DNA of 64,000 nucleotides, taken from positions 14,389-78,388 of the forward strand of contig CADCGC010000011.1 in the NCBI GenBank assembly GCA_902800905.1. The letters run 5' to 3'. A program made the translations under genes and the position numbers. How positions within the stretch are numbered: the first letter of the stretch is position 1; each line of letters opens with the position of its first letter. Below, piece by piece: positions 7,820 through 53,608 of this stretch. Under the pieces are notes generated by a model. That model was given only the letters and a program-made list of their open reading frames with translations. It ran no database searches and was not told the DNA's origin. The stretch comes from an uncultured Erysipelotrichaceae bacterium (GTDB lineage: Bacteria > Bacillota_I > Bacilli_A > RFN20 > CAG-826).

Positions 7820-7842
7820 TATATTAGGAGGATTTATATTAT

Positions 7843-14399: not shown

Positions 14400-14401
14400 T
14401 C

Positions 14402-21878: not shown

Positions 21879-22193
21879 ATGGAAATAAACGAGAATAATC
21901 TTATTATATATAATAACGGAGAAGTAGAAATACCAGTAATTGTTGCTCTTGAAGAGAAAACTGTATGGCTTAGTTTAGACCAAATCGCGATGCTTTTCGG
22001 AAATAGCAAATCTAATGTTTCAGAGCACATCAAAAACATCGTAGAAGATGATGAATTAGACTTAAATCGAGTTGTTCGGAATTTCCGAATAACTGCCTCT
22101 GATGGTAAGAAATATGATGTTAGGTGTTATAACCTTGATATGATACTTGCAGTAGGTTATAGAGTTAGAACAAAAAGAATGATTTATTACTAG
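21879..22193 (+). pseudogene. RhuM-family protein N-terminal fragment (truncated)
   Basis: IIYNNGEVEIPVIVALEEKTVWLSLDQIAMLFGNSKSNVSEHIKNI ... YNLDMILAVGYRVRTKR matches the RhuM N-terminal domain. The ORF stops after 104 aa, whereas the family as I recall it is about three times longer. Confidence 0.6.
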
Positions 22194-23338: not shown

Positions 23339-23479
23339 ATAGTTGCATCAAAAAGGTGACTTAGAACGTCCCATTCTACGAGCTTGATTGATGTATTCAA
23401 ACTTAACTATCATCCATTCAAAACAAATAGACGACAATTGAATGGTATTTTGTCGTTTAAATACAAGGAGATAATTAAA

Positions 23480-24616
23480 ATGAAAAAATCAAAAGTTGTC
23501 ATTCCTGCATTAGGTTTAATCGCTTTATCAACAGCCGCCTCTATTACAGGTACTGTTGCATGGTTCTCTGCAAACCAAAGCGTTTCAATTAAAGGTATGA
23601 CAGTTTCTACAAAAGTTGGAGATAACTTATTAGTCTCTGGCACAAACGCAAACGCAGCAAGTTATAGTACATCATTAGAACAAGAACGTACAGGTGTTCT
23701 CGAACCAGTTTCATCCGTTGATGGTGTTGACTTCTACTACACCGCAACAGACAACGTCCAAAATGGTGGTGACGCTATTGCAGACGAATACGTCTTATAT
23801 GCTGAAGGTACTTCATTATCAAATACTAATGCTGGAAAAACAAAATATGACGCTGATTTCCAAACCAATTATGCTTTAGAAGGTGTTGTTTCTGATTCTA
23901 ACGTCTATTATGGTTTCATCGATTACGCTTTCTATGTGAAAGCCGTTAATGGTGGTGCTGCTGACAAATACTTAATTTTACACGACTTAAACATCACTTA
24001 TGATGGAGATATCATTTCTGAAAAAGCATGGAGAGTTGCTGTCTTTGATGAAGCTGCTTCCGAATACGTTGCAATCGAAGGTGATGTCGCAGTAGGCGCA
24101 AGAAAAGCCATGCTTACTCCTTCAGGAGCTGCTAACTTCACAACTGGACAAGCTGTCAGCTCCACAAGTGGAACAGGTTCTGTCACATACACAAGTGCTG
24201 CTTGGCACTTAGACACAATCGCTGCTGGAGCAACCGAATATAACAAGATTACTGTTAGATTATGGCTCGAAGGCGAAGACAACACATGTAACAACGATAC
24301 ATTTGCAAGCTTAACAGCAAACTGGAAACTTGATGTTGAAGTTAAATTAGAAGACGCCAACACCAACGCTATCACAAATATTAGATCAGTCGCAGCTGTT
24401 GCTACAAAATCAACAACTACTGGTACTGTCGAACTTCATGGTGATACAGCTTCCTCATATCAATGGTATTTAGTTACTGGTAATTCTGCTATTAGTGGTG
24501 CAACCAGTGCCTCATACACAAACGATGGTGCTGCTAGAGATGTTTACTGCATCGTCAAGACCGCTGCTGGTAGAACATATAAATCCAATGTTCTCAGCCT
24601 TGATGCTGGTGCATAA
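23480..24616 (+). CDS. TasA/camelysin-like secreted protein with SipW-type signal peptide; putative major fibre subunit
   Basis: AAGGAG RBS 9 nt before the ATG at 23480. MKKSKVVIPALGLIALSTAASITGTVAWFSANQS signal. C-terminal core ITVRLWLEGEDNTCNND...NWKLDVEVKL shares the W-L-E-G motif with the downstream paralogues. It has its own promoter and a strong terminator. Confidence 0.7.
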   Translation: MKKSKVVIPALGLIALSTAASITGTVAWFSANQSVSIKGMTVSTKVGDNLLVSGTNANAASYSTSLEQERTGVLEPVSSVDGVDFYYTATDNVQNGGDAIADEYVLYAEGTSLSNTNAGKTKYDADFQTNYALEGVVSDSNVYYGFIDYAFYVKAVNGGAADKYLILHDLNITYDGDIISEKAWRVAVFDEAASEYVAIEGDVAVGARKAMLTPSGAANFTTGQAVSSTSGTGSVTYTSAAWHLDTIAAGATEYNKITVRLWLEGEDNTCNNDTFASLTANWKLDVEVKLEDANTNAITNIRSVAAVATKSTTTGTVELHGDTASSYQWYLVTGNSAISGATSASYTNDGAARDVYCIVKTAAGRTYKSNVLSLDAGA

Positions 24617-24637
24617 TTAGCAAACTAAACTCACAAA

Positions 24638-24667
24638 GAAATCCTCGATTCATTCGGGGATTTTTTC
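24638..24667 (+). terminator. Rho-independent terminator after the putative major subunit gene
   Basis: 9-bp stem aaatcctcg/cggggattt (one G-U) followed by T6. Confidence 0.8.
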
Positions 24668-24777
24668 TTTTTCTCGATCGCATTTCTTATATACACGCGT
24701 TCTTCTAATTTTTTATTTATTTAAAATAATGCTTGCATACTTGTTTTATTTAGTGTTATTTTATTAACGAGAAAAAA

Positions 24778-24898
24778 GCACAACCATAGTGATATGGTGC
24801 CGCAAAGCTAAAGGGTCTTAAGAAGAAGGATTAAGATAGCCAGTTGCCTTAGAGAGTCGTTCTCGGCCAATGCGTTGGATGATAGGCAACTGGCTTTT
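24778..24898 (+). promoter_or_regulatory. c-di-GMP-I (GEMM-I) riboswitch with long terminator-type expression platform (copy 3)
   Basis: GCACAAC-CATA-GTGA-TATGG-tGCCGCAAAGC-taaaGGGTCTTAAG...GATAGCCAGTTGCC. The 11-nt AGCCAGTTGCC (24838-24848) is perfectly complementary to GGCAACTGGCT (24885-24895), which is followed by TTTT. Confidence 0.85.
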
Positions 24899-24951
24899 GA
24901 TTCTCTATTGGGACATTAATTTAGCCTTTCCTTCTAGGCACACTCTCACTT

Positions 24952-25785
24952 ATGGAATACAATATTAGGTACGTTAACAGGAGAAAAAGACGCATTCGTG
25001 CGGCTATCATTGGTGGCATCTCGACAGTAGTGGTTGCCTCTTTAAGCATAGTTGCATTCTTGGGTCGATTTGTTGGTACATTTACTGTATCTTTAGATAC
25101 AGGAACTGTTAAACTTACTCTTGCTGAAGAAAGTGCATTCCTCACCTCAACATCATTCCTAAGAGTGAACAATCTAGCGCCATTTGAAGAATATACATAC
25201 ACATGGTTTAACGATGAATATTCTGAAGATGAGTTAGATAATGATATTTCTAATTACAAAATTGGATATCATTATGCTTCTGATGGAACGACCATCAAAA
25301 ACGTCAAGTTCTTTAAATATACTTTCTATTTGAAGAATGTTGGGTCAACTAAAGCTTTTTACGACTGCAAGATCAGAATTCTTGAGTCTAAAGCTTCAAA
25401 CGATAAAAGAAAACTCGATGATACATTAAGAGTTATGGTTTATCGTAATCCACTCAACGGATCTCATAATAAGAAAATATATGGTAAGGCCGTTAGACCT
25501 CGCACTAATGAACAAGGCGAACTTGATTATCGTCCTCCAATTTCAATGTCAGAAGAAATGGCGAGCTATTTAAGCCAACCATTCCCTGGATATGTTGATG
25601 ATACATTTGTATCGGGTGAATTAATCGCACAATATAAACGTGTTGAAATTGCCGTAAGTGAAGTAACAAGGTACACCCTCGTCACCTGGTTAGAAGGATA
25701 TATGTCCGGAACCGAAGCAGAGGAAAACGCACCTATTGGTGCAACAATCAAATTAGGAGTTGAAATAAACGCATATGAAAATTAA
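24952..25785 (+). CDS. TasA-like protein with Arg-rich N-terminus and TM segment but atypical cleavage region (candidate membrane-anchored base/anchor subunit)
   Basis: First ORF after riboswitch 3. RRKRRIRAAIIGGISTVVVASLSIVAFLGRFVGTFTVSLDTGTVKLTL lacks the A-W-[FY] motif. YTFYLKNVGST and VTWLEGYMSG...GATIKLGVEINA resemble TasA/camelysin core motifs. Confidence 0.6.
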   Translation: MEYNIRYVNRRKRRIRAAIIGGISTVVVASLSIVAFLGRFVGTFTVSLDTGTVKLTLAEESAFLTSTSFLRVNNLAPFEEYTYTWFNDEYSEDELDNDISNYKIGYHYASDGTTIKNVKFFKYTFYLKNVGSTKAFYDCKIRILESKASNDKRKLDDTLRVMVYRNPLNGSHNKKIYGKAVRPRTNEQGELDYRPPISMSEEMASYLSQPFPGYVDDTFVSGELIAQYKRVEIAVSEVTRYTLVTWLEGYMSGTEAEENAPIGATIKLGVEINAYEN

Positions 25786-26734
25786 TAAGAAATTAATCGT
25801 TGCTTCTTTATCAACTGCCCTTGGTCTAGGAATTGTCGGTAGTGTTACTGGCACTGTCGCCTGGTATCAATATTCAACTAAAGCCATCACTTCTATCGTT
25901 GGTGCAAACGCATCTCAAAGTGGTTTATTAAGAATCTCTACAGATGACAACAACTATAAGAAGGATCTTTACACAACTGATATCTTAGGTGCTGCAGAAA
26001 ACGCTGAAAGTAATGACTTTGACGGCAATTTTGAACCTGTCACTTTTGGTGGCGTTGCAAAAGACGGAGCTATGCCTTCTGATGCTTATCTTAATCCAAG
26101 ATATGGTCATCAACCATTAAATGAATGGAAATCAGCTAAAGGCAAAAACTACGAATATTTGCAATATGACCTCTACCTCAAAGCTGAAAAATATGACGAA
26201 ACTGCAAATGATTACATCCCAGTAGCTGGTTTACCAATCTACTTATCGAACATGGAAATCATTAATGGAACAGTCGGAAAAGACATCGCTGATGCTGTGT
26301 TTGTTCACATCGCAGTTGATGGAGGAGACAACTTCCTCATCAGTAGAACTGGTGCTGATGTTAACACTTATGGTGAATTAGATTTAGATAACGATTCCCA
26401 TAATGATCCATATTTTGGATATCAACCAGACATCGCTGACCCAGCTCATTACGACGATCCAGTTGCTTATGGCACAGATGGAACAAAGAACACTTCCTAT
26501 AGTGTTATTGCCGGTGCTAATTCTATTATTTCTCCTAGAGGAGAGGATGGCAGAATTGATCCAGCAACTGCAACAAAACTTTGTGACACCATTGATGGTG
26601 GCATTAAGTTAACAGTCACTATTTGGCTCGAAGGTTGGGCTATGGCTCAATTATGGAATCCAACTCAAACCGCTAACGCTCAATTCAAAATCGGTATGAC
26701 TTTTGATGTCGGCAGAGGCGCCTTTGAAGATTAA
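25775..26734 (+). CDS. TasA/camelysin-like secreted protein with SipW-type signal peptide (minor subunit paralogue)
   Basis: MKINKKLIVASLSTALGLGIVGSVTGTVAWYQYST. C-terminal LTVTIWLEGWAM...AQFKIGMTFDVG. Overlaps the preceding gene by 11 nt. Confidence 0.7.
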   Translation: MKINKKLIVASLSTALGLGIVGSVTGTVAWYQYSTKAITSIVGANASQSGLLRISTDDNNYKKDLYTTDILGAAENAESNDFDGNFEPVTFGGVAKDGAMPSDAYLNPRYGHQPLNEWKSAKGKNYEYLQYDLYLKAEKYDETANDYIPVAGLPIYLSNMEIINGTVGKDIADAVFVHIAVDGGDNFLISRTGADVNTYGELDLDNDSHNDPYFGYQPDIADPAHYDDPVAYGTDGTKNTSYSVIAGANSIISPRGEDGRIDPATATKLCDTIDGGIKLTVTIWLEGWAMAQLWNPTQTANAQFKIGMTFDVGRGAFED

Positions 26735-26748
26735 GGAGGGAACTAACT

Positions 26749-27735
26749 ATGAAAATGAATAAGAAATTAGTAGTTGCCACCTTATCAACCGTCATGGGTA
26801 TTGGTTTAGTTGGTAGTATCTCTGGTACTGTTGCTTGGTACCAATATTCCACAAGATCAATGGCAACCTTAATTGGTACAGAAGTATCTCACGCTGGCAC
26901 AGTCACATTAAGTACCGACGGAACAAACTACTCTGGTAGACTTTGGACCAACGATATCTTAGGTTCTAACAGTGTGAAATTCCATCAAGCTACCTTTGGT
27001 AAGCTTAATAATGATGGTTCTTTACCAGCTCAAGCATACTTAAATCCAGAAGCCGGCTATGGCGCTCTCAATTTATGGGACAAAGCAGTAGCAGGCGTGG
27101 ATTATGTTCAATTTGACCTCTATTTCAGAGCTCTTGAACTCAAAAATTCAAGTGATTTATATGAACGTGTCGCAAAAGACATCTATTTAACTGATGTCGT
27201 CATCGAAGATTTGGATAGTGGTAAAGATATTTCTGACGCAGTCAGAGTTCACTTCCAAAACAAGAATGACGCTACTGATAACTGGTTCTTATCAAAAGAA
27301 GCAGTCACAGGACAAAAAGTCGGTGCCTATCTTGACTTAGATAGAGATGGTGATCCAGATAAGGAACGTAGTGAATACATCTACGAACCAGATCCAAGTG
27401 CACCAGACTGCAAATATGGTCAATTTAGTGGCGACACACCACTTGAACAATTAGATACCAAAGGTATCGATGATACAATCGCGTCTGAAAACGCATCAAC
27501 AGGCGCCCTTGAAGATACAACTGGTAAATTCCACGTTACAACCTTAAATGCAACTGAATACGCTGCTAATAGCAACACAGATGTTTGCTACACAGTTACT
27601 ATTTGGCTTGAAGGTTGGCACGTCTTTAGCGGCGCAACCGACGCTATCTGGGATTTACAAAGTACATACGATGCAAGCTTCCATGTTGGTTTCACCTTTA
27701 ATGCTGGAAGTAATGTATTCGATGTTGATGCATAA
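26749..27735 (+). CDS. TasA/camelysin-like secreted protein with SipW-type signal peptide (minor subunit paralogue)
   Basis: AAGGAGGG RBS. MKMNKKLVVATLSTVMGIGLVGSISGTVAWYQYST. C-terminal YTVTIWLEGWHV...ASFHVGFTFNAG. Confidence 0.7.
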   Translation: MKMNKKLVVATLSTVMGIGLVGSISGTVAWYQYSTRSMATLIGTEVSHAGTVTLSTDGTNYSGRLWTNDILGSNSVKFHQATFGKLNNDGSLPAQAYLNPEAGYGALNLWDKAVAGVDYVQFDLYFRALELKNSSDLYERVAKDIYLTDVVIEDLDSGKDISDAVRVHFQNKNDATDNWFLSKEAVTGQKVGAYLDLDRDGDPDKERSEYIYEPDPSAPDCKYGQFSGDTPLEQLDTKGIDDTIASENASTGALEDTTGKFHVTTLNATEYAANSNTDVCYTVTIWLEGWHVFSGATDAIWDLQSTYDASFHVGFTFNAGSNVFDVDA

Positions 27736-27787
27736 TCATTACAATTTCGTTTAAAAATATAAAAATATCTGGAGAAAGGAGGAGCAA

Positions 27788-28945
27788 ATGAAAAGCATAA
27801 CTAAAGTTAGATTATTAATTTTAGCGATGAGCGCTGTTTCAGTTGTGTCAATGGTTGGATCAACCGCTGCGACTGTTGCTTGGTACGTCAATAGTACTGG
27901 TGCGAAAGTCACATATACAGGAACATCTGTTCAAAAGTCTACAAGACTTACTTTAGGATTAGTTGACGAAGAGAACAAATTCACTGACGCAGATTTAGTC
28001 ACATACAACTTAGAAAGAGAATCAGGCGCAACAGTTGATGGTAAGACCATTGTCTGGTCAAAATCATCAAGCATCATAAATGATGTTCTCACTAAATACC
28101 TAACTGAATATGGCTATGCAACATATCTCCTTTCTCCAGTAACTACAAAAGCTAGGGCAATTGATAGCACAGATGGTTTAACGCTTTACAAAGCTCCAGA
28201 AACATCTCAAACCGTTTTAGATGAAACTGCAGATCCAAAATCTTATATCACTCTCCCATTTGCATTCAAAATTGTTAATAGTAGCAATGAGAAAGTTCAA
28301 GATAAAGAAATTTGGTTAACCAATTCAATGGTTACGACAAGTTTAGCTAATAATGATGGTAATAGTGTGATTAGACTCTTTGTTGACAATCATCACAATA
28401 GTGAAAAATTCATTGTTAGACCTGCAGATAACTCTGATTCAACTGGTGAGACTGTAGTTGGAGGACTTTTAAACCTCGCTGGTGGAGATAGCACTGTCTA
28501 TGACTATGATTCAAATACTTTACACGAATATATTTATGGCGATTACGATAAGTCTGGTGGATTTGCACCAATTTATTCCGATTCAACCTATGAATATTTC
28601 CCTGGATTTGATGAAAATGAATATGACAATGTCAATGACACTCCATACGAAACAGCGTCGACATTCTATGCCAAACACAATAAGAATTGTTACCCAATAA
28701 CGAATTATAATGAACTTCAAAACAGATTCTTGAAGGCTCACTATCATACGATGGGAACCATTAGACCAACATCCACAAATGGTGTTTATAGTGGCGGTAA
28801 ACCAATCGCATATACAGAAAGCGCTTCAAAAATTGGATATTCAACAATCTCGATTTATGTTGAAGGATGGGATCATGCCTTAACCGATGACAAAATCGAT
28901 GTACAATTCAATCTTTCAATGACATTTGAAATTAATACACTTTAA
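27788..28945 (+). CDS. TasA/camelysin-like secreted protein with SipW-type signal peptide (minor subunit paralogue)
   Basis: AAGGAGGAG RBS. MKSITKVRLLILAMSAVSVVSMVGSTAATVAWYVNST. C-terminal STISIYVEGWDHAL...VQFNLSMTFEIN. Confidence 0.7.
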   Translation: MKSITKVRLLILAMSAVSVVSMVGSTAATVAWYVNSTGAKVTYTGTSVQKSTRLTLGLVDEENKFTDADLVTYNLERESGATVDGKTIVWSKSSSIINDVLTKYLTEYGYATYLLSPVTTKARAIDSTDGLTLYKAPETSQTVLDETADPKSYITLPFAFKIVNSSNEKVQDKEIWLTNSMVTTSLANNDGNSVIRLFVDNHHNSEKFIVRPADNSDSTGETVVGGLLNLAGGDSTVYDYDSNTLHEYIYGDYDKSGGFAPIYSDSTYEYFPGFDENEYDNVNDTPYETASTFYAKHNKNCYPITNYNELQNRFLKAHYHTMGTIRPTSTNGVYSGGKPIAYTESASKIGYSTISIYVEGWDHALTDDKIDVQFNLSMTFEINTL

Positions 28946-28953
28946 TTCCTTTT

Positions 28954-30064
28954 ATGAAAAGAAAACAGATTATTCTTACTCTAAGTGTAGGCATAATCGC
29001 TTTAGGTACGATAGGAGTTGGAGCTTCTGTTGCGTGGTATGTCAATAGTAACAACTTATATGTTAATGCGATTGATATCACAATTAGCAGTGGTCCAGAA
29101 CTCTTAATTTCAAGAAGCACCAATCTTGACAGTTTTGTGAGCGAACTTGATTTATCAAGCGAACCAAAAAAGAGCGACTTTGCTCCTGTCACAAGTGCAT
29201 ATTCTTCTGACTGGATTAATAATAAAAGTGATAAACCAATTTTCTATGATGACACAATGAACTTCATTTACCCTGAAAATGGAAGTCGTAAAATCACAAC
29301 AGATATTGGTTATTATCAAGAAACACTATATTTATATAGTGATACAAACGCTGATGTAATTATTGATCCAAATAATACGTACTTAAAAGCTAATGCTTCT
29401 TTTAATAAACGCGTACGCACAGGAAATCAAAGAAACTGCTAATCAAGAAAATGTTTCTTCTGATTATCTCAAATATCGAGATATGACAGTGGAACAAATC
29501 GCTGATAGATTAAACAAGCTTCCTGAAGCAATGAGATTCTCAGTGCTTGTACCAGATGAAGAAGTATATCAATACGGAATTATTGATCCAAACAAAGACC
29601 AAACCAAAATTGTTGAATATGGTGGTCTACTAGACGTTAATATCGATGGATACTTTGATAGCTTCCATGATGGAAATGTCAACAAAGAACATTTCTATGG
29701 TGATATTAATGATCCAAGTAAAATCGTCTATGCTGAATCAGAATTAAATGATTCAGATTACGTAGATCCTACTAAAGATACAAGTGCGTTCAATGCACGC
29801 CACGGGGCAAATATTCAAAGATTCGATAAAGAAGCCTCAATTAATAACGGACTCGTCATTAATAAAGAACCATCTCTCGGGTTATATGACTTCAGTCCAA
29901 TGAAAGAAAATAAACCATTCGTTATTCGTTGCAACGAATATGAACCAAGAAAAATCGTCTTAACAATCTATATTGAAGGCTGGGATTTAGAAAGTGTTAA
30001 TTACACGATGGGAGCAAGCTTTATTGCCTCTCTCGGCTTCAGGGTTGATAGACCAAGTAAATAA
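28954..30064 (+). pseudogene. TasA/camelysin-like paralogue interrupted by a 1-nt frameshift (or sequencing error)
   Basis: 28954-29442 encodes MKRKQIILTLSVGIIALGTIGVGASVAWYVNSN... and stops at 29440-29442. The +1 frame is open from 29387 and carries the family C-terminus LTIYIEGWDLESVNY...ASLGFRVD up to 30064. Confidence 0.65.
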
Positions 30065-30078
30065 GGAGAAAGTTAGGT

Positions 30079-31593
30079 ATGGAAGCATATTTTGAGTACT
30101 TAAGAGAAATGCTTGTCAAATTCTTTTCTGACTTAGGTAGATTCTTCTACAAGTGGTGGGTCTCACCATGGGAAGATGTCGGAGGGAACTTTGAATCTTA
30201 CAACGCAATATTTCAACAACATGTAAATGATTTCCACTTTGTGGGATGGTTATTCTACATTATTTTCCTTATTTTCTTTATTGCCCTTATTGGAGCGATT
30301 GGTTTTGGTTTATATATCCTCATTAGAAAATATGTCCGTTTCTATAGAATTCAAAAAGAAAAGGATGATCTTATTAGAGAAATCGAGAGATTACAATACG
30401 ACTTATACATTCAATTAACTGAAAAAGAAAAGATTCTTAATCTTAAAACTGCCTATATGGGTATTAAACCTGCTGATGGCTCAGAAGAAGCTAAAGTTAT
30501 CGAAGAAGTTAACTCTAGATTCCCAAAACTTATCTCTGTTGACCAAACCTATAAAGACAGAAATCCTGCTATTGCCTTCAAAGAAGGCTTATCTCTAGAA
30601 GAATTATGTAATTCATTTAGAAATTACTGTGCTTCAAAAGAAACCTTATATTACACAATTGACACAATTAGACAATTATTCGCCGGTATCGCAACTTCTA
30701 AATTAATCATCTTAGAAGGTATCTCTGGTACAGGTAAAACATCTATGGCAACCGCCATTGGTAAATTCTTCCTCTTCGATAGTGCTATCATCTCTGTTCA
30801 ACCATCTTGGAAAGATCGAAGTGAACTATTAGGCTACTACAATGAATTTACTAAGAAATTCAATGAATCAGAATTCTTAAAAGCTTTATACACAACAACA
30901 TATCGTAAAGATCTTAACGTTATATGTCTTGATGAAATGAACTTAGCGAGAATTGAATACTACTTCGCTGAATTCTTATCCGTCATGGAAATTAAAGAAA
31001 CCGATAAATGGTTAATCGACTTAATTCCTTCTACAGAAGCTGGTGACCCAATCCACTTAGAAGATGGTAAACTCAAGATTCCTCAAAATGTTATCTTCTT
31101 TGGTACCGCCAATAACGACGATAGCACATTCACTATTTCAGATAAGGTCTATGACCGTGCTATTTCCTTATTCTTTGATGATAAAGGACGTAAGTTTGAC
31201 TGCCAAGAACAAGAACCAATGACTGTTCCATACGCTCAACTTGTTTCCTTATTTGAAGAAGCCAAAAAGCAAAATCAAATCTCTGAAAACATGATTGAAA
31301 AATTTGAACAACTTGATAACTTTGTCATCAAGAAATTCAAACTCGCCTTTGGTAACCGTATTCTTAAACAAATCGAAAGCTTTGTTCCAGTTTACGTTGG
31401 TTGTGGTGGAAATGAATCTGATGGTTATGACTTCATTTTCACAAACAAGATTTTAAAGAAATTTGAAAGCTTAAATATCGCCTTTTTAAAAGATGAATTA
31501 AAAGAACTTGATGCATATTTAGACAAATTATACGGTAAAGGACAATTCAAACTCGCTCACGCGAAAATTGAATCAATGCTTAAAAATAATTAA
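30079..31593 (+). CDS. Membrane-anchored McrB-like AAA+ (AAA_5) NTPase
   Basis: AAGGAG RBS. One strong TM helix (about aa 53-83) and a short coiled coil. Walker A GISGTGKT, then SVQPSWKDRSELLGYYN, Walker B ICLDEMNLARIEYYFAEFLSVME, and FFGTANNDDSTFTISDKVYDRA. These blocks parallel the McrB GTPase motifs, including an NxxD-like element. Confidence 0.7.
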   Translation: MEAYFEYLREMLVKFFSDLGRFFYKWWVSPWEDVGGNFESYNAIFQQHVNDFHFVGWLFYIIFLIFFIALIGAIGFGLYILIRKYVRFYRIQKEKDDLIREIERLQYDLYIQLTEKEKILNLKTAYMGIKPADGSEEAKVIEEVNSRFPKLISVDQTYKDRNPAIAFKEGLSLEELCNSFRNYCASKETLYYTIDTIRQLFAGIATSKLIILEGISGTGKTSMATAIGKFFLFDSAIISVQPSWKDRSELLGYYNEFTKKFNESEFLKALYTTTYRKDLNVICLDEMNLARIEYYFAEFLSVMEIKETDKWLIDLIPSTEAGDPIHLEDGKLKIPQNVIFFGTANNDDSTFTISDKVYDRAISLFFDDKGRKFDCQEQEPMTVPYAQLVSLFEEAKKQNQISENMIEKFEQLDNFVIKKFKLAFGNRILKQIESFVPVYVGCGGNESDGYDFIFTNKILKKFESLNIAFLKDELKELDAYLDKLYGKGQFKLAHAKIESMLKNN

Positions 31594-31606
31594 TTAAAAG
31601 GATTAT

Positions 31607-33817
31607 ATGGCTAGCAGCAACAAAAAACTCTTCCAAAAATATGTCGAAAAGATGAACTCCTTCAACAAGGACAAAAATGTTGAAGCGATTTATGATTCTT
31701 TACTTAATGGAAAGAATTCATATATTAGATTAACAAGAAAAGGTTCATCTTCTTTTGACCCAACTTGGATCGATGTAATTGAAGACTGCTTATACGATTT
31801 AGGAGAAATCATTAATAATCCTCGTGAAGTCACTAAAACCGAAAGTAGCATTACCCCAGTTGAACTCGCTAAAAAAATTGATGGAGAATCCGTTGTCCAT
31901 CTCGCGAGCCACACTCAATATATTAAAGAAGTGGATGAAGACGGTAATGTCGTTCCTTCGAAAATCTTATCTCACTATAATGTCGAAGACATTCATACCT
32001 ATGAAAATAGATTCATCGCGACATTTATTAGAAGATTACTTCTCTTTATTGAAAAGAGATATGAATTTATCGAAAAGACCGTTAATTTAACATGTAACGA
32101 TGTTTTAATGGTCAAAAACAAATCAATCGTCGATGGCCAAGAAGTTGAAATCGAAACCAAAATCACGATTAAAAAAGACATCATTGATGAAAGTGCAAAA
32201 CACGCGAAAGAATATATTGAACGTATTTTTAATATGCGCGATTACATCAAATATTACTATAATTCTCCATTTATGAAGGCTCTTAAGAACGAAAAAGACG
32301 TTCGTAAGCCAATCCTTCAAACAAATATCATCCGTAAAAATCCAAAATACAGAAAATGTTACGAAACATTCGTTTTCATTGAAAGGTTTGAATCTTTAGG
32401 TGTGTCTTATCACGTCGATGAGAACTATCAAACTTTTAACGAAAACGAAAGAGAAGAGATTAACTATCTCATGTTATCTAGCTTCCTTTCTGTTCAAAAT
32501 GACCATGAATTTGCTTCTATTAAAAAGAATAGTAAGACCTATAAACCAAGAATCCTTACTAGTATTGATGATGAGAAGTTCGTTTATGGTGACCTTTTAA
32601 AAGGTCCAATCGAATTCGTACGAGTGGATCAAGCCTATAGAGACTATTTACACGCTCAAGTGAGAGAAGATTTACCACTTCACCCAAATAAATACGAAAA
32701 AGAATATTACAAAGAAGAATATGATCTTAAGAAAGCTGAGAAGCTCAATCAAAAAGAATTAGATAAATTAATCGCTCGTAAAGAAAAAGAAATCGCTGAG
32801 TGGGAGAAATATGTTGAAAAACTCATCGCTCAAAGAGAACTTGAAGAAGCGAAGCAAAGACAAAAAGAACTCGAAGAACTTCGTAAATACCATGAATCTC
32901 TTATTGAAATTAGAAGAAAACGTATCATCGAAGAAGCTGAGAAGAATAAAGATCCATATGATGGACCAATTTATCGTCCAGAAGAACAGGCTAAAACTCC
33001 AGAAGTGCCTCTAGAAGTTGAATTAGCCCAGATGTCGAATGAAATCCCATCTGAAAGTGAAACTCCTCTTAATGAACCTGTTAGTGAACCTAATAATGAA
33101 GAAACAGTTTCTAATGAAACTCCAGTTGAGGCTCCAATAGAAGAAAACGTTCCTGAAGTAGCAGAAACCGCTCCTCAGGTAGAAGAGGCTCCATTAGCTG
33201 AAGAGCCAGTTCAAGAAGCCGCTCCAGTAGAGGAAGCTCCTCAAGAAGAAGTACCTGCTGAAGATGTTCCTGCTACAGAAGCACCTGTTGAAGAGTCACA
33301 AGTCGAAGAACCAGCTCCTGAGGTGGTGGAAGAAGTTCCTTCTGAAGAGTCTCAAGAACCTGAAGAAGAAATAGAGAATGCTCCAAAGAAAGAACAAGTT
33401 ATCTATCGTGTTATGGGTGACGCGCAAGTCATTTATGTCGACGGACATAAAGAAACTGTTTACGCTGCTAGCGATGAAGAATATGAACTAGTGGAAGAGA
33501 ATAAAGAAGAGGAACAACCTTTGGTTGAAGAGACTAAAGAAGAACCAAAAGTCGAAGAAAAACCAAAACCAAAGAGAATGCCTCCTCAACGTAAAAAGAA
33601 AGAAACTCCTCCTCAAGAAGAACAAGTTGATTACTCTACTAAAGAGGGAGATGTTCTTAAAGTCATTCCAGGAAAATTCATCGTTAAAACCAATAACGGT
33701 TACTATATTAGTGATGAACAGTTCTCTGATCATCGTGGGGACGCCACAATATTTGACGACTTCAATGTCGCTAATCAAAAGAAATCTCAATTTGGTGGAA
33801 AGGTCATTAAGTTATGA
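31607..33817 (+). CDS. McrC N-terminal/DUF2357-like protein lacking a recognisable nuclease domain; long coiled coil and acidic Pro/Glu-rich region
   Basis: 736-aa ORF. HTYENRFIATFIRRLLLFIEKRY and ILQTNIIRKNPKYRKCYETFVFI resemble the DUF2357/McrC partner-binding region. I found no D...(D/E)xK block. A K/E-rich heptad-like segment is followed by about 125 aa of P/E/V/A low complexity (about 33000-33400) and a small C-terminal domain. Confidence 0.5.
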   Translation: MASSNKKLFQKYVEKMNSFNKDKNVEAIYDSLLNGKNSYIRLTRKGSSSFDPTWIDVIEDCLYDLGEIINNPREVTKTESSITPVELAKKIDGESVVHLASHTQYIKEVDEDGNVVPSKILSHYNVEDIHTYENRFIATFIRRLLLFIEKRYEFIEKTVNLTCNDVLMVKNKSIVDGQEVEIETKITIKKDIIDESAKHAKEYIERIFNMRDYIKYYYNSPFMKALKNEKDVRKPILQTNIIRKNPKYRKCYETFVFIERFESLGVSYHVDENYQTFNENEREEINYLMLSSFLSVQNDHEFASIKKNSKTYKPRILTSIDDEKFVYGDLLKGPIEFVRVDQAYRDYLHAQVREDLPLHPNKYEKEYYKEEYDLKKAEKLNQKELDKLIARKEKEIAEWEKYVEKLIAQRELEEAKQRQKELEELRKYHESLIEIRRKRIIEEAEKNKDPYDGPIYRPEEQAKTPEVPLEVELAQMSNEIPSESETPLNEPVSEPNNEETVSNETPVEAPIEENVPEVAETAPQVEEAPLAEEPVQEAAPVEEAPQEEVPAEDVPATEAPVEESQVEEPAPEVVEEVPSEESQEPEEEIENAPKKEQVIYRVMGDAQVIYVDGHKETVYAASDEEYELVEENKEEEQPLVEETKEEPKVEEKPKPKRMPPQRKKKETPPQEEQVDYSTKEGDVLKVIPGKFIVKTNNGYYISDEQFSDHRGDATIFDDFNVANQKKSQFGGKVIKL

Positions 33818-34818
33818 GCGACAAAGTGAATAATGAAGTGATCCAAGAAGTTGTGGAGGAAACTCCTAAGAAAAAGAAAAGAGAAAAAAAGCCTAAAAGT
33901 AAGGCTCTTAAAATCATCGAATGGGTGTTACTAGGAATCTTCTTACTAGTATTTGGCTTCTTAGGAGCTGCTCAAATCGATGGAATGGTTAACAAAGCCA
34001 AAAACAATGATGAAGAAATCCGTTTCGGAGTAGGAACATTCATCGTTCTTACTAACTCCATGGAACCTTTATATAAAACGCAAAGCGCGTTAATTACATA
34101 TAAAGAAGAAATGGATGTCATCGTTAACGCTCTCAAGGGAGTTAAAGGTGCTGAAGTTGTCAGTGATCCGGAACATAATCCCGAAGATGTTGGCAAAGAC
34201 TTCATCATGACATTCCCTGGATACAATGCTAGCCTAGATGAGACCGATCCTAATAAAAAAGACATCAATAACGGCATTGACATTACATTCAAAAACAACG
34301 ATACAGGAATAAAACCTTCAGAATTTGACTTAAGAACTCCTGAATTCGTAACTGGCCAAATGATAGCTATTGGTCAGGTAATGACTCACCGTATTAGAGA
34401 ACTTCATATTAGGCAAAATGTTGAATTTGGCAAAGGAAAATATGTATTTGTCACATCAGGTATTAATGATCAAGGCGAATACAGCAAAATGGGACAATAT
34501 CAATTTGTCACCGAAAAATTATATTTAGGAACCGTGAAAGTTAATTCACCATTCCTAGGAGGAATCTTCTATTTCGTTTCCTCACCATGGGGCTTATTAG
34601 TGTTATTGCTTCTCCCCGCTGCCTACTTAATCATCGTTTCCGCTAAAGACATCTTTAAAGCTTTAAAGGAAACTGAAGAAGGTGAAGCAAAAGAAAATAA
34701 AACACCAAGTAGTCTAGATACTATCTCTAATGAAGATAGAGAAAGACTCAAACGAGAATTACTCGATGAAATGATTTCCAAGAAACAAGGAGAAAAGAAA
34801 GAGGATGAACAAAAATAA
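33814..34818 (+). CDS. Signal peptidase I of the ER/archaeal (SipW-like, S26B) type with Lys-rich N-terminus, large insertion and C-terminal TM
   Basis: The start overlaps the upstream stop (ATGA). TM helix, then VLTNSMEP (catalytic Ser box), VMTHRI (His box), SGINDQG (cf. KGDNN), and a C-terminal TM LLVLLLLPAAYLIIV. Confidence 0.75.
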   Translation: MSDKVNNEVIQEVVEETPKKKKREKKPKSKALKIIEWVLLGIFLLVFGFLGAAQIDGMVNKAKNNDEEIRFGVGTFIVLTNSMEPLYKTQSALITYKEEMDVIVNALKGVKGAEVVSDPEHNPEDVGKDFIMTFPGYNASLDETDPNKKDINNGIDITFKNNDTGIKPSEFDLRTPEFVTGQMIAIGQVMTHRIRELHIRQNVEFGKGKYVFVTSGINDQGEYSKMGQYQFVTEKLYLGTVKVNSPFLGGIFYFVSSPWGLLVLLLLPAAYLIIVSAKDIFKALKETEEGEAKENKTPSSLDTISNEDRERLKRELLDEMISKKQGEKKEDEQK

Positions 34819-36361
34819 TAAGATACTTATTATTTACAATATCTTGTTTGCCGCTTGTGGCTTAATCTTTTTAGCATCCTTATCAATTCAAATCGCCACT
34901 GTTATATCACCAAGTTTATTTGGAGATGTTACTACAGCGATTGATTTCATTGTTCTTGTTATTTGTATTGTCTCAGGTTTTGGAACAGTGTTTTCACTTA
35001 TCTCAGCCTTTAAAGAAAGAGATTTTATCGCTCAACTCCAAGCTGAAAATACTTACACATTAGGACACGCGATTGCTTTCTATAATCTTGATGCTTTTAG
35101 ACAAAAAGTATCTATGTTCATTCGTTCTCCATTATCAAAGAACAAAAAACAAGCGATTCTTGTTTTCTCAACCGCTTCACTTGAAACTTCATTTAATGCA
35201 TTTAAAAATGATGCGATGACTGAACTCAACTTTAATGTTGCTTCATTCTTAACAGGTTTATTTGAAAACCCAAAGAGTGAATTTGCTAATAAGCGTTATG
35301 TCTTTGGATTTAATAGAGGAATCTTCCTTATTTATTCTTTTGAAGCTGAAGAAGAAAGAGTGAAACAACTTGTAAGTGTAATTCTTACTAAAGTTTATGA
35401 CATAGTCAAAGAATATGATCTCAAGATTTGGGCTCAACCATTCTTTGGTCTTAGAGAAGTGAACAAAGGAGAAAATATCATCAGTGCGATTGAAGATGCG
35501 TTCTCCGCTAGAAGCACTGGAGAAGCAAACTTTGAATCATTCTCAAGATTTGTTCCTCAAATCACCAACCAAGAATCAACAAACTTCTTAAAAGAATTAC
35601 AAGACGCTTTGAATAATGGCGAATTCGTTCCATATTATCAACCAAAATATTCCTTAAAGAAGAAAGAAATTGTCTCTGCTGAAGTTCTTTGTCGATGGAA
35701 TTCTCCTACTAGAGGATTATTAACTCCTGGTGTCTTTATTGATAAAGCTGAACAATTTGGTTTAATCTCTGCAATTGATATTTATATCTTTGAAGCAGCC
35801 CTAAAAGACTTGTCTAACTCTATTAGAAGAGGTAGAAGAGTTATTCCTGTTTCCACAAACTTCTCATTATATGAGTTCTTCTCACATTCATTCTTAGACA
35901 CAATTGTTGCTTTACTACAAAAATATCAAGTTCCACCTTCACTCGTGGAAATTGAAATTACTGAAACAACCTCTCAAGTTAACCAATTCTTATCAGTTTC
36001 CGTTATTAAGAAACTTAAAGATAAAGGCATCAGAGTCTTAATGGATGACTATGGTGTTGGATATTCTCAAATTGATAACTTGAAGAATATTCCTTTCGAT
36101 GCGATTAAAATCGATAAATCATTCGCTGATGAATTACTTGAAGATGAAAAGACACGCTCAATCGTGAAGTTCTTAGTGGAACTTGGCCATGTCAATGACA
36201 TGGAAGTCATTATCGAAGGTGTTGAAAAGAAAGAACAAGTTGATATATTAAGAAAGATGGGAGTCGACACAATTCAAGGATTCTATTATTCTAAAGCTTT
36301 AAGCTTTGCGGATTATGAAGAATTCCTTAAGAACAATCCATTTGAAGGAGGAAAGAAATAA
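34805..36361 (+). CDS. Membrane-bound c-di-GMP phosphodiesterase (EAL domain, catalytic residues apparently intact; degenerate GGDEF-like middle domain)
   Basis: Two N-terminal TM helices. EAL blocks are all present: YYQPKY, AEVLCRW, STNFS, EIEITET, MDDYGVGYS, IKIDKSF, IEGVE, IQGFYYSKA. Confidence 0.8.
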   Translation: MNKNNKILIIYNILFAACGLIFLASLSIQIATVISPSLFGDVTTAIDFIVLVICIVSGFGTVFSLISAFKERDFIAQLQAENTYTLGHAIAFYNLDAFRQKVSMFIRSPLSKNKKQAILVFSTASLETSFNAFKNDAMTELNFNVASFLTGLFENPKSEFANKRYVFGFNRGIFLIYSFEAEEERVKQLVSVILTKVYDIVKEYDLKIWAQPFFGLREVNKGENIISAIEDAFSARSTGEANFESFSRFVPQITNQESTNFLKELQDALNNGEFVPYYQPKYSLKKKEIVSAEVLCRWNSPTRGLLTPGVFIDKAEQFGLISAIDIYIFEAALKDLSNSIRRGRRVIPVSTNFSLYEFFSHSFLDTIVALLQKYQVPPSLVEIEITETTSQVNQFLSVSVIKKLKDKGIRVLMDDYGVGYSQIDNLKNIPFDAIKIDKSFADELLEDEKTRSIVKFLVELGHVNDMEVIIEGVEKKEQVDILRKMGVDTIQGFYYSKALSFADYEEFLKNNPFEGGKK

Positions 36362-37119
36362 TGATCGTGGTCATTGGTGCGTCACATGATGACATCCTTT
36401 ATTTCGAGAAAGTTCTTTATAACAGACGTGAAGAAGTTTTCTTAAACCGTTACGTTGCTTATATTGGAACGGTCTTCAATCAAGAACTTTTAGTTATGGG
36501 TGACCAATATGGTTCCATTCTTTCTAGTGCGGTTGTTTCTCATATTTTAAATAAATATTATGTCGATTTAGTAATCTGTGTCGGTCGTTGCTTTGGTATT
36601 GATAAACGCACCAAGAGTGGTGACATTGTTATTTCAAATAACATCATAGATGTTAATGCTGATTTATCTTTAGTTAAAAACGTTGGAATTGGACAAATTC
36701 CAGGTTTCCAACATGAATTCAAAGTTCAAAACGATATTATCAACTACCTTAAAAAAGGTGTTGGTAAGAGAAGCTATATCACTTCTTACGACGCAGTCTA
36801 TTTATCAAGTGATAATTTAGCAGAAGAAACATTAAAGATTTTAAATCAAAATCGAGGAGTATATGGCATCACCGATGAAAGAATCGTCTTTGATCATAAT
36901 AGCGCTGGTGTCGCTTTAGCGGCCACCTTGAAAGACATTCCATATGTCTCGATTAAAGTCGTTCAAAATCTTTTAGATAAAGAAGAAAATATCGATGACT
37001 ATCTTAAAGTTCTCGATAAATATATCGATTTAGGTAAGTCAGTTGTTTCTACAATTGGTGATATTGGTAGAAATGATATCTTAAGAGGAGGTATTGGTAA
37101 TGAATACAAAGGGTCGTAA
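36361..37119 (+). CDS. MTA/SAH nucleosidase (Pfs, PNP_UDP_1)-like protein, catalytic residues apparently substituted
   Basis: MIVVIGASHDDILYF ... GDIVISNNIIDVNADL ... GQIPGF aligns by eye with the Pfs blocks MKIGIIGAMEEEV ... GDIVVSDEARYHDADV ... GQLPGC. Positions matching the Pfs acidic catalytic residues read SHDD, DHNS and VQN. Confidence 0.5.
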   Translation: MIVVIGASHDDILYFEKVLYNRREEVFLNRYVAYIGTVFNQELLVMGDQYGSILSSAVVSHILNKYYVDLVICVGRCFGIDKRTKSGDIVISNNIIDVNADLSLVKNVGIGQIPGFQHEFKVQNDIINYLKKGVGKRSYITSYDAVYLSSDNLAEETLKILNQNRGVYGITDERIVFDHNSAGVALAATLKDIPYVSIKVVQNLLDKEENIDDYLKVLDKYIDLGKSVVSTIGDIGRNDILRGGIGNEYKGS

Positions 37120-40100
37120 TTTTCTCGATCGTCAAAAGAACCTATCTTCCTTAGGAAGATTCTACCTAATCGTTCCAGCGGTTATTTTAGGTGTGGATGT
37201 TATCGTTTCCATTATTTTCGCGGTATTATATCTCGCTAAAGAAGAAAGAGTGTTCTTAATTCTTTTAATTGTCTTCTTTGCCTTATCTTTACTTGCCTAT
37301 ATTGCTTTCTCTATCTTTATGATGAAAAGATTACACGCGGTGTATTATGAACAAATCTATTTAACAACTTATTCCAATATCAAAAAACTCGCCGCTAACG
37401 ATACAAGTTTTGATTTCTATCGTGATTTGAATATCGATGAAGTCGATAGCATGAATGACGCCATGCATGATATTAAAAAGAAATTCGACAATTCTTATTT
37501 AGTGGTCACAACACCAGATTACACTAATCTTAACTTAGAATATGTCGATAAGAATCGTAATTTAATTACCTTTGAATCTTTCAAAAAGAATCTCTTTAAT
37601 ATCATCCATGTTTCTCAATCCTTTAAAAACACCTTAATCTCTGTTTCTTATATGTTAGATGATGAATTGTCAGAAGATGATAAGAATAGAATTCTTAACC
37701 TATATTTCCATACATTTAATGACTATGAAAGAACATTATTCATGTTTGGAGAAGACGGAAAATCTTTAATCATTTATCTACCAGTTATCGACTCTTTAAG
37801 TAGAGTTAAAGAACAATTAGAGCTCACCGCTAGTGATAGTTCAATCGTCATTAGAGAAGCTGGTGGACTTAGAAATATCGCTCCTAGATATGCTCTTGTA
37901 GTCTATCCATATTCTAGTGAAGAATATCTTTTAAGTGATCTTAGATATGCTAGAAGACAAAACAAGAATATGAATATCTTCATTCCTAATAGAATTGAAA
38001 ATAATATTGGCAAAAATCTCTTAATGAGTAGCACGATGAATCATAGCTATATGTCAAAGATTCTTTCTAAGATTTCTACATTAGAGTATAACGCGACAAA
38101 CAGTGAAGAAAGTGAAACCGCAATTAAAGCTTTATTTGATGAATTAGTGAAATTCTTAGAATTAGATGAAGCCGGTATCATCGTTTACGATGATTCTACT
38201 AAAGCGTATCGCCTACTCCTCGCTAGTGAAGGAGCAAATATCTTCCAAAAGAATAAAACTATTGACCAATCCTTCATTTCTTCTTTAGAAAGTGCTTCTG
38301 AAGATGATGGTTCATATTATTTCTCAACCAGAAATCACGCGAATAAAGTCTTAGGCCGTCAACTTGATTTCTTTGGAATTAAAAGTGGATATTATCAAGT
38401 CGTTACTAATGCGGACGGACGAACTATCGCTTTGATTTACTTCTTTAATAGATATCGCGATTTCTATATCGATTCCTATTTAAGAGAATCATTCTTCATG
38501 CTCTGTTTAAGAATCGCTCACTACTTTGAAAAGAAAGAACTTCTTGATTATCTTGATCTCCGTAATAGCGAGAATGAATATATCCTCTCCATGAGTGATT
38601 ATATGCTTTATAAATCAAACGATGAATTTACCCTTACATATTTATCTAATGATTTAAAGAAATTCATTCCAAAAGCCACAATTGGAGGATATTGTTATAA
38701 AGAATTATATGGATTTGATCGTCCATGTAACGACTGTCCAAAAAGAACCTTTAAAGCTAAAGAAGTTACTCTTGGTAAGAAGAGATTTGAATTATCTTTG
38801 AACCTTAACGAAAGAAAGAAACAAAACTACGCAATGTTATTAAAAACTCTTTCTGATGACGAAGATGTTGATTCAAGAGTCCTCTTTAATGAAAACTATC
38901 TCACATATTCCTATTATTCATTACATAAAGTCTTAAAGAACGAATATACATCAAGTGGTCGTGGTTATGTTTTACTTTTAACCATCGATAACTTTGATTC
39001 ATTCTTAGAGAGCCAAAAAGAACAAGGATTGCTTTTCTGTGTCCGTTCATTAATTAGAAATATCAAAAACAAATTAAAGATCTCTGATGTCTATCTCTAT
39101 AACCCATCGACAATTGCGATTCATCTTCCATCATATGGTCATGCGGATGTTCTTAATATTTGCGAAAACATCTATGATGTTTCTAAAGAACATTATTTAG
39201 ATGATGGTAGTGATGATCAATTTAAATTAACATATCTTCCTGTTGGTTATCCTCGTGGATATGCTTCAGTTGATGACTTTATGAGACATATGGGTGATTT
39301 CTATCGTTCTGATAAGAATGAAAGAGGCAAAGACTTCATTTACTTCTGTGACTATGCGATTAGCCGTAGTGCTTCTAAACGTGAATTCATGTTATCCGTC
39401 ATTGAAAATGAATTCTCTGGTCAATCTACAGCCTCTGTTAATCTTCAACCAATCGTTCAAGTTTCTAACAAACACATCTATGGCGCAGAAATTCTTCTCC
39501 GTATTAACGACGTTCATAGAGGAGTCTTCTTTAACGCGGAAGAGATTTCACGTATCGCTGAAAAAGAAAATAAGACTCATATCATTACTGAATCAATCAT
39601 TAACTTTGTTGGTAACTTATATAAAGAGCACGGTAAAGGTGCATTCAAAATTAACGATTTTGAACGTATCGCGATTAACATCGACCAAACTTACTTAAAA
39701 GATCCAAACTTAATTAAATCAGTTATTGAACTCGTTGAGAAAAATAACATTCCTGATAACTTCATTTCCTTTGAAATTCCTGAGGATATGATTCCAGATA
39801 ATATCGACAAGATTAAAGACTTCGCTAATCAGTTGAAGAGTTACCATATCTTCTTCTCTTGCGATAGATTTACTGGAGAATATATCGGTAGTGAAAAGCT
39901 TAAGGATTTAGGATTTAACGAAGTTAAGATTGCTCGTAACTTAATCATTAAGATTGATAAAGACCCAATTCAACTTAAGGCGGTTGAAGATATCGTGAAG
40001 AACGCTCATAACGTTGGTATTAAAGTTGCTGTCGTTGGTGTTGAAAACGAAGCACAATATAATATTCTTAAGAATCTAGATAATGAAATGGTGGTCCAAG

Positions 40101-53506: not shown

Positions 53507-53608
53507 AAAAATTTCCTCCTAATTTAAGAATACTTTTGCGTGCACCTGAAAACAATAAAAAAATATAAAAGAAAAGGGTTTTTAAACCCTCTAAAAAATA
53601 TTATTTTT

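Follow-up and report, generated by a model that had tools for sequence, protein, structure and literature searches.

McrBC is the textbook GTP-driven restriction motor. In canonical McrBC of Escherichia coli (PDB entries 6hz4, 6ut6, and 7vsr), McrB combines a DNA reader with an AAA+ core that carries Walker A and B motifs, an asparagine sensor, an arginine, and an NxxD signature. It is activated by McrC, a DUF2357 protein with a PD-(D/E)xK nuclease, and the two genes adjoin each other in B-then-C order. Here, we analyze a derivative of this motor in a window of 64,000 nucleotides (nt) from an uncultured Erysipelotrichaceae bacterium (GenBank assembly GCA_902800905.1, contig CADCGC010000011.1, positions 14,389 to 78,388; this whole stretch is called the window below). 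It consists of two adjoining genes, one for an McrB-like GTPase that is predicted to be membrane anchored and one for an McrC-like partner without a nuclease. The pair resembles canonical McrBC in the motifs of the AAA+ core, in gene order, and in having an adjoining DUF2357 partner. It differs in that a transmembrane (TM) anchor takes the place of the DNA reader, the signature is NxD and not NxxD, the partner lacks a PD-(D/E)xK nuclease, and both genes are part of a secretion operon.

The relatives closest to the window pair have been described by Bell et al. (eLife 2024, PMC11090510), who recognized a major noncanonical branch of McrB with an NxD signature and, in most cases, E or a further D at the next position. 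CoCoNuT systems (CnuB/CnuC) are soluble, always occur with a HEPN or other nuclease, and are predicted to act in defense (PMC11090510). The window pair shares with them the NxD branch, the coiled-coil fusions, and McrC homologs that often lack an active nuclease. Unlike in CoCoNuTs, its GTPase is membrane anchored, as far as can be predicted, and its operon contains no nuclease. A further class, CoCoPALM, was named in three sentences of section 7 of the same article and deferred, and its mechanism was not given. It comprises an NxD GTPase fused to an FtsB-like TM and coiled-coil module, an associated gene of the signal peptidase family, and coiled coils that are usually found on the McrB and McrC homologs alike (PMC11090510). 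The window pair matches this outline, with an NxD GTPase, an N-terminal TM segment and stalk, a DUF2357 partner containing a long helix, and an adjoining peptidase. Since features that define canonical McrBC and CoCoNuT are lacking and the CoCoPALM features other than FtsB homology, for which Pfam gave no match, are present, we assign the pair to the named class as a CoCoPALM-type McrBC derivative. The arrangement is thus not new, as the class had been named before. The published description is silent on six secreted subunits, cyclic di-GMP (c-di-GMP) and PNP_UDP_1 genes, an acidic tract and a C-terminal domain in the partner, peptidase tail motifs, and occurrence in Treponema. Our search of the accessible literature found no follow-up on CoCoPALM, nothing on the candidate defense system PDC-M26, and nothing relevant that pairs SipW with an AAA+ protein.

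A second point of comparison is provided by operons for TasA-type fibers. Like tapA-sipW-tasA of Bacillus subtilis and sipW-bsaA-bsaB-bsaC of Clostridium perfringens, the window's operon encodes an S26 signal peptidase, putatively of the endoplasmic reticulum (ER) type, together with secreted paralogs, and the predicted cleavage region of these paralogs (G-T-V-A / W-Y) resembles that of TasA. Unlike those operons (PMC9674648 and PMC11580942), it contains a nucleoside triphosphatase (NTPase), its subunits show no TasA or Peptidase_M73 similarity, and its peptidase is extended by long cytoplasmic tails and contains a large insertion. The accessible part of PMC11580942 gives no McrB-like gene in the C. 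perfringens matrix-fiber operon. We consider the best overall explanation, at a probability of roughly 0.6, to be a CoCoPALM-type McrBC derivative that serves a surface-fiber system.

The GTPase belongs to the NxD branch of McrB

The GTPase is encoded by an open reading frame (ORF) of 504 amino acids (aa) at positions 30079 to 31593 and its partner by an ORF of 736 aa at 31607 to 33817, both on the forward strand, as are all features given below unless stated otherwise. Shine-Dalgarno-like sites precede both genes (GGAGA before 30079 and AAGGA before 31607). The spacer between them measures 13 nt, so that the partner's ATG starts 14 nt past the last base of the GTPase stop codon, and the TGA of the partner and the ATG of the signal peptidase gene overlap as ATGA (33814 to 33817). 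These ORFs, the 14-nt spacing, and the overlap agree with an earlier annotation of the window made without database searches, to which we refer as the sequence-only reading.

That reading had taken the 504-aa protein for an McrB-type ATPase, and the PDB searches agreed, as McrB was the only family matched among the PDB chains. A sequence search with the single protein returned only E. coli McrB (E 4e-4, residues 188 to 375), and a profile built from 25 homologs matched only the McrB chains 6hz4, 6ut6, and 7vsr (E 7e-5 to 1.4e-4). The phmmer and hmmsearch alignments to these three chains place the AAA+ core at aa 188 to 375 (30640 to 31203). Pfam AAA_5 scored 20.7 bits, just under its cutoff of 22 bits. 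The PADLOC profile PDC-M26A gave an E value of 7e-41 for the window GTPase and of 2e-38 and 3e-41 for its relatives. More than 8000 homologs of the GTPase were found, and the best matches were 70 to 93% identical.

All motifs that had been quoted for the two proteins were present, namely, GISGTGKT, VQPSWKDRSELLGYYN, LDEMNLARIEYYFAEFLSVME, and GTANNDDST..DRA in the GTPase and HTYENRFIATFIRRL and NPKY.KCYETF in the partner, and they are invariant or nearly so among the aligned homologs. Walker A (GISGTGKT, aa 214 to 221, 30718 to 30741) and the Walker B residues D285 and E286 within LDEMN (30931 to 30936) are invariant in the alignment. The arginine of DRA is likewise invariant in the family and sits at the position of the McrB arginine. 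Taken alone, GTANNDDST could be read as either NxxD or NxD-D. It aligns without gaps to GTANKDEST and GTVNMDETT of two ordinary NxD McrBC relatives that have no membrane anchor, from Bacilli SUG800 (locus L075) and Flavobacteriales UBA5871 (locus L076), respectively. Relatives with NNDD, NKDE, or NMDE all retain N345 and D347, with D or E at the position that follows. The signature at N345-N-D347-D348 (31111 to 31122) is therefore NxD followed by D, and the GTPase does not conform to canonical NxxD. We accordingly place the 504-aa protein in the NxD branch of the McrB-family GTPases, with its Walker A, Walker B, and N-x-D residues intact. The strict conservation of these catalytic residues argues for genuine nucleotide turnover.

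The part of the protein that precedes the core (residues 1 to 185, comprising N-tail, TM segment, stalk, and linker) had no domain match in Pfam or NCBIfam, and no DNA reader was found there. An aromatic N-tail (aa 1 to 56, 30079 to 30246), conserved in the alignment, is predicted to be extracytoplasmic or interfacial and carries a net negative charge. It is followed by a single TM helix at about aa 57 to 82 (30247 to 30324). This helix, which the sequence-only reading had called strong, stands out in Kyte-Doolittle hydropathy with a peak of 2.84 over residues 49 to 86 and was found in 28 of 28 relatives examined. A stalk at about aa 83 to 128 (30325 to 30462) is conserved, first basic and then rich in K, E, and L, and putatively forms a short coiled coil judging from heptads identified by eye. 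A crude heptad script flagged neither this stalk nor the long helix modeled for the partner and was not used as evidence. Among the 28 members, the mean number of lysine and arginine residues rises from 0.5 in the 15 residues before the TM helix to 5.7 in the 15 residues after it. By the positive-inside rule, this bias places the stalk and the GTPase in the cytoplasm, where an NTPase has to lie, and the N-tail of about 55 residues outside or at the interface. In the predicted N-out/C-in orientation, the single N-terminal TM helix would tether the GTPase to the inner side of the membrane.

The partner retains the DUF2357 module of McrC but no nuclease

The 736-aa protein itself had no match in Pfam, NCBIfam, PADLOC, or the PDB sequences. 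Its likeness to DUF2357/McrC, noted from the sequence alone, was recovered through homologs. Pfam DUF2357 was matched by 7 of 30 close and 16 of 40 distant partner homologs, several of them above the gathering score, with a best E value of 1.5e-10. Residues 46 to 145 of the family profile, which end at the invariant YENRFIA, aligned to the DUF2357 region of the L076 partner by hhalign (probability 88%, E 3e-6). The McrC-type homology is therefore considered real. The L076 partner carries DUF2357 (2e-45) followed by PDDEXK_7 (4e-36) in Pfam and served as a positive control for nuclease detection. No nuclease family of Pfam was found in the window partner or in the 70 homologs (30 close and 40 distant), in line with the claim that the partner has no PD-(D/E)xK nuclease. 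Matches to a PD-(D/E)xK regular expression were rejected as meaningless, being confined to the hairpin and coiled-coil regions. Past residue 350, the AlphaFold2 model contains only a long helix, disorder, and a domain of 50 aa, so that a nuclease would not fit in. From these matches, we classify the 736-aa protein as one that retains only the N-terminal DUF2357 module of McrC, the nuclease being gone. Our confidence in the identity of both parts of the pair is high.

The conserved N-terminal region with the DUF2357 core spans aa 1 to 350 (31607 to 32656), and its invariant residues include Y132-E133-N134, R151, and T239-N240. Residues 132 to 218 are modeled as a unit of helix, long beta-hairpin, and helix. 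The hairpin (aa 162 to 191, 32090 to 32179; strands 162 to 175 and 178 to 191, predicted local distance difference test [pLDDT] of 71 to 77) contains E183 and K185, which are invariant among close homologs. By analogy with McrBC, it is a candidate for the finger that would enter the GTPase ring.

The three downstream features listed in the sequence-only reading, a K/E helical stretch, an acidic Pro/Glu tract, and a small C-terminal domain, were all seen. The K/E-rich segment of about 85 residues (32690 to 32944) is modeled as helices 362 to 367 and 369 to 446. It contains 27% D/E and 26% K/R, and the longer helix, with a pLDDT of 80 to 90, may be a coiled coil or a single alpha-helix. A disordered tract of about 240 residues follows (aa 448 to 686, 32948 to 33664), with a net charge of −51, 14% proline, and a pLDDT below 50. 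Its length varies, and homologs range from 524 to 1167 aa. The C-terminal domain (aa 687 to 736, 33665 to 33814) is modeled with a pLDDT above 90 as beta-beta-beta-alpha-beta. It is conserved in close homologs and was detected in about half of the loci, two of which encode two copies; no significant match was found among PDB sequences. Hydropathy revealed no membrane segment in the partner. One distant homolog among the 39 aligned contains bacterial Ig-like domains, including Big_2 repeats (E 1e-135), an unusual feature in a protein that should reside in the cytoplasm.

When 1.84 billion representative sequences were searched, the N-terminal profile yielded 1526 partner-family proteins (50% identity), 600 of them below 1e-30. 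Among the matches listed, all carry the N-terminal module of the partner, and their lengths range from 161 to 2240 residues.

The pair has a fixed place in a secretion operon

Gene neighborhoods provide our strongest line of evidence. To describe them, we used 74 loci from species-representative genomes and three more, annotated with the window's own proteins; counts are limited to loci with enough flanking sequence. The GTPase gene lies directly upstream of the partner gene in 57 of 57 loci. An S26 peptidase gene directly follows the partner gene in 59 of 61, and the identical 4-nt overlap between these two genes occurs in 27. All 45 informative loci have at least two subunit-like ORFs upstream. 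The two exceptions for the peptidase are L075 and L076, whose NxD pairs lie outside this operon. Locus L075 (3 to 2731) encodes the NKDE GTPase together with a partner whose C terminus is a Cys4 ribbon, and an ABC transporter adjoins the pair. In L076 (178 to 4277), a soluble N-terminal extension with no Pfam identity takes the place of the membrane anchor and is combined with the NMDE signature and a DUF2357 plus PDDEXK_7 partner.

Carriers are mostly metagenome-assembled genomes (MAGs) of rumen and gut Bacilli and also include Lachnospiraceae and Treponema rectale. The triad of GTPase, partner, and S26 peptidase with upstream secreted paralogs is common to all three lineages. In Lachnospiraceae, whose partner proteins are only about 30% identical, the triad is kept, and the genes are arranged as subunits, (peptidase), GTPase, partner, peptidase, and further secreted proteins. 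This variant is present in the cultured strain Anaerosporobacter faecicola KCTC 15857 (locus L069, 5879 to 14123; also L070 to L074). Its partner has 382 aa, without the acidic tract or the C-terminal domain, and its loci carry neither EAL nor PNP genes nor peptidase tails. In L069, a peptidase gene lies on either side of the GTPase-partner pair, and the secreted proteins downstream are different. The full cassette, with GGDEF, subunits, GTPase, an 853-aa partner, peptidase, EAL, and PNP, is found in the finished genome of T. rectale (CP031517; locus L077, 5805 to 26800), indicating that the entire unit has moved between Bacillota and a diderm phylum.

The sequence-only reading had allowed for a defense module hitchhiking in the operon. 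The pair would then still work as an anti-phage or conflict module that guards the fiber operon or sits in it, for instance, through an abortive response to phage at the fiber. Ancestry speaks for this role, since the family has its origin in type IV restriction systems, the sister NxD CoCoNuTs are predicted defense systems (PMC11090510), and reader, GTPase, and nuclease together make L076, a close NxD relative, a complete system. In addition, the best profile from a defense library is that of a candidate defense component, PDC-M26A (E 7e-41). However, this profile was matched only at positions of about 270 to 445 out of 724, which correspond to the GTPase core, and no second component of PDC-M26 was detected. 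The partner and the peptidase match no PADLOC model, and the library gives no description of PDC-M26. Scans with Pfam, NCBIfam, and PADLOC found no nuclease, HEPN, or other effector in the pair or its operon, and no nuclease was present among all scanned genes between 22315 and 40165. Instead of occupying variable defense islands, the genes keep their place in 57 to 59 loci of three lineages, where their reading frames often overlap, and the cassette crosses phyla as one unit. Such a fixed order in several lineages is expected of an integrated machine rather than of a defense-island passenger. We therefore regard a defense role as very unlikely and the hitchhiking variant as disfavored.

The linkage, together with the motifs and the partner profile, supports the proposed history of an McrBC-type module that was taken up into a secretion operon, with a membrane anchor acquired and both the DNA reader and the nuclease lost. 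A function of the pair in a fiber or secretion system appears probable. Overall, the ATPase falls in the McrB clade, no nuclease was found in the partner, and homologous pairs do not reside in defense islands, as the sequence-only reading would have it; the part that did not stand is its TasA label, which is taken up below.

Secreted paralogs encoded upstream of the GTPase

Six paralogous genes for secreted subunits, recognized by N-terminal hydrophobic segments and common motifs, occupy positions 23384 to 30064. They are located at 23384 to 24616 (with a likely true start near 23480), 24952 to 25785, 25775 to 26734, 26749 to 27735, 27788 to 28945, and 28954 to 30064 (frameshifted). Each product starts with a hydrophobic segment of the Sec type, after which comes a nearly invariant GTVAWYQYST, and has WLEGW near the C terminus; an LDL(D/N)xDG loop is shared as well. 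The AlphaFold2 model of the product of 25775 to 26734 is a beta-sandwich (pLDDT 82, predicted template modeling score 0.81). A SipW-type signal peptide (TIGR04088) was indicated for the first subunit only, at 15.3 bits and thus below the cutoff of 19.

The secreted neighbors had been labeled TasA-like. Neither Pfam nor a PDB profile search gave a sequence match to TasA, camelysin, or any other family; the one Peptidase_M73 match that Pfam returned among 23 members of the subunit family had an E value of 0.016. As the PDB profile search, Pfam on the 23 members, and Foldseek all failed to recover TasA by sequence or fold, the label was dropped. The presence of multiple paralogs, a dedicated peptidase, and an invariant segment after the predicted cleavage site suggests that the subunits form a fiber.

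Alternatively, the paralogs could form a surface layer, an adhesin complex, or a matrix, and the GTPase could act in FtsB-like remodeling of the envelope or division site. The subunit model, a beta-sandwich that matches neither TasA nor any pilin, would fit such a role, as would the FtsB-like TM and coiled-coil homology that Bell et al. (PMC11090510) reported for the N terminus of the GTPase and the fact that many carriers are reduced-genome MAGs of rumen and gut Bacilli. On the other hand, Pfam finds no FtsB or DivIC homology, and the positive-inside rule puts the stalk in the cytoplasm, opposite to the periplasmic coiled coil of FtsB. Six paralogs with an invariant GTVAWYQYST after the signal resemble a set of major and minor subunits in a polymer held by N-terminal donor strands. 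An envelope role is improbable on balance, and a surface fiber is the preferred reading of these genes.

The sixth subunit gene consists of two overlapping ORFs. Compared with its closest relative (L006, 7317 to 8453, a 378-aa ORF), it contains one extra A near 29405 to 29407. The gene is unsplit in all other loci, and the split may reflect slippage in an A-rich run, loss of function as a pseudogene, or an error in sequencing.

The signal peptidase and the c-di-GMP genes

The gene that overlaps the partner's stop codon (33814 to 34818) encodes a signal peptidase of 334 aa, which we tentatively assign to the SipW/ER type (S26B) on the basis of a subthreshold match. It scored 40.8 bits against NCBIfam SipW (1.6e-10; cutoff 190) and 23.8 bits against TIGR02228 (cutoff 51.85). 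The L069 peptidase encoded beside the GTPase gene (7702 to 8364) passes the archaeal-type TIGR02228 at 87.4 bits. Ser82 (in SMEP) and His192 (in THR) are invariant across relatives and correspond to the S26B catalytic type. The protein has two TM segments. In the clade of Bacilli and Treponema peptidases, the Asp of the S26B motif GDNN is replaced (SGIN or AGIN; residues about 213 to 219, window positions 34450 to 34470). It is kept in three of four aligned Lachnospiraceae peptidases, and the L069 peptidase at 7702 to 8364 has GVNN.

The cytoplasmic N-tail of the peptidase is polybasic (KKKKREKKPKSK). After the second TM segment, the tail contains the motif S-x-E-D-x-E-R-L-K-x-E-L-L-x-E-M, which is present in all Bacilli-type loci and is repeated three to five times in some. 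Other examples are the peptidases at L057 (13231 to 14409), L077 (17852 to 18931), and L025 (12680 to 13936). These tails may be docking sites for cytoplasmic partners.

The cluster is headed by a gene for a GGDEF diguanylate cyclase (22315 to 23229; Pfam GGDEF, 1.9e-28), which is also found in several related loci. Downstream of the peptidase, Pfam identified an EAL protein (34805 to 36361), a nucleosidase/phosphorylase-family protein (PNP_UDP_1; 36361 to 37119), and a second EAL protein of 1023 aa (37094 to 40165). Of 55 loci, 50 have an EAL gene downstream of the partner, and the operon tail is conserved in the same proportion, with the PNP_UDP_1 gene always between two EAL genes. Because GGDEF and EAL genes share the operon, we propose that the system may be under c-di-GMP control.

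In view of these genes and tails, the pair could instead act in regulation, as a switch or scaffold. Its nucleotide state, perhaps in response to c-di-GMP or to the EAL and GGDEF proteins, would then gate or recruit the peptidase without mechanical work. The operon has conserved genes for one GGDEF and two EAL proteins, and both the polybasic N-tail and the conserved, sometimes repeated motif of the C-tail could dock cytoplasmic partners. The acidic tract of the partner, given its net charge, could bind basic tails. Furthermore, the subunits have Sec-type signal sequences, so that their export needs no extra motor. Arguing against a pure switch, the catalytic residues are strictly conserved, as expected for real turnover, and the Lachnospiraceae versions keep the triad although they lack EAL genes, the acidic tract, and the peptidase tails. 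No c-di-GMP-binding motif was found. We consider a switch unlikely, if less so than the envelope or defense roles, and prefer a GTP-consuming function in fiber assembly.

Immediately upstream of the GGDEF gene, a 104-aa ORF (21879 to 22193) is a gene fragment that matches the RhuM virulence-protein family over its first 42 positions only. Four large ORFs of 646 to 1054 aa had no Pfam match at an E value of ≤1e-4 (9095 to 11035, 14375 to 17296, 18362 to 21376, and, on the reverse strand, 50391 to 53555). The rest of the window looks chromosomal, with genes for SHMT and an M18 aminopeptidase; it contains no tRNA genes, and PHROGs gave no meaningful viral family match.

Proposed mechanism and implications

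By analogy with the McrBC structures from E. coli and Thermococcus, the GTPase would form a hexameric ring below the membrane, hung on six TM and stalk helices. A helix-hairpin-helix finger of the partner would enter this ring and stimulate GTP hydrolysis, as in the same structures, and the long helix of the partner may dimerize and thereby bridge two rings, as the nuclease dimer of McrC does. Linkage and translational coupling suggest that the complex works with the cotranslated SipW-type peptidase and the six Sec-exported subunits. It could thus represent the cytoplasmic, GTP-consuming module of a pilus-like apparatus for surface-fiber assembly. Its nucleotide state might be relayed through the TM helices and the outer tail of about 55 residues to the processing, polymerization, or anchoring of subunits. 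This specific coupling mechanism is tentative.

Several points weigh against this picture. The AlphaFold2 model of the partner has a mean pLDDT of 60 and is poor in the DUF2357 region (40 to 60 in places), and a Foldseek search of the PDB with the full-length model returned nothing below an E value of 0.06 and no McrC. As the model is poor and mostly disordered, this null result is uninformative either way, and the finger-in-ring geometry is drawn by analogy. A Pfam scan of the GTPase gave no DivIC or FtsB match at an E value of ≤0.1. The subunits have no demonstrable TasA likeness or fiber formation, and Foldseek matched their model to no PDB entry at an E value better than 0.03, with TasA outside the top 50. 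Docking of the partner's C-terminal domain on the peptidase tail motif was rejected as stated, as the motif is found in every locus with either feature (all of Bacilli type or Treponema) and the domain in about half, and their copy numbers do not track each other. TasA-type fibers that have been studied need no dedicated NTPase (PMC9674648), and in the accessible part of PMC11580942, type IV pilus proteins are the only ones that help fiber formation. Finally, we found no experiment on any member of the CoCoPALM class.

The boldest form of the proposal is a motor of an unrecognized surface-filament machine. In such a machine, GTP hydrolysis would drive or gate the polymerization or retraction of new beta-sandwich subunits processed by SipW, under c-di-GMP control and encoded by a mobile Bacillota-Spirochaetota cassette. 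We regard this as speculative and rather doubtful. If it is true, the pair would be a functional analog of the type IV pilus ATPases built on the chassis of a restriction enzyme and a clear exaptation of a defense machine for cell surface biology. If the pair powers or gates polymer assembly, it would also define a new route by which cytoplasmic nucleotide energy reaches the biogenesis of bacterial surface structures. In dozens of gut and rumen species, a putative ring-plus-activator unit stripped of its nucleic acid-contacting parts is tied to a peptidase and secreted paralogs. The predicted topology of the GTPase, the conserved operon content with c-di-GMP genes, the candidate interaction motifs, and two cultured carriers, A. 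faecicola and T. rectale, offer new handles on this family.

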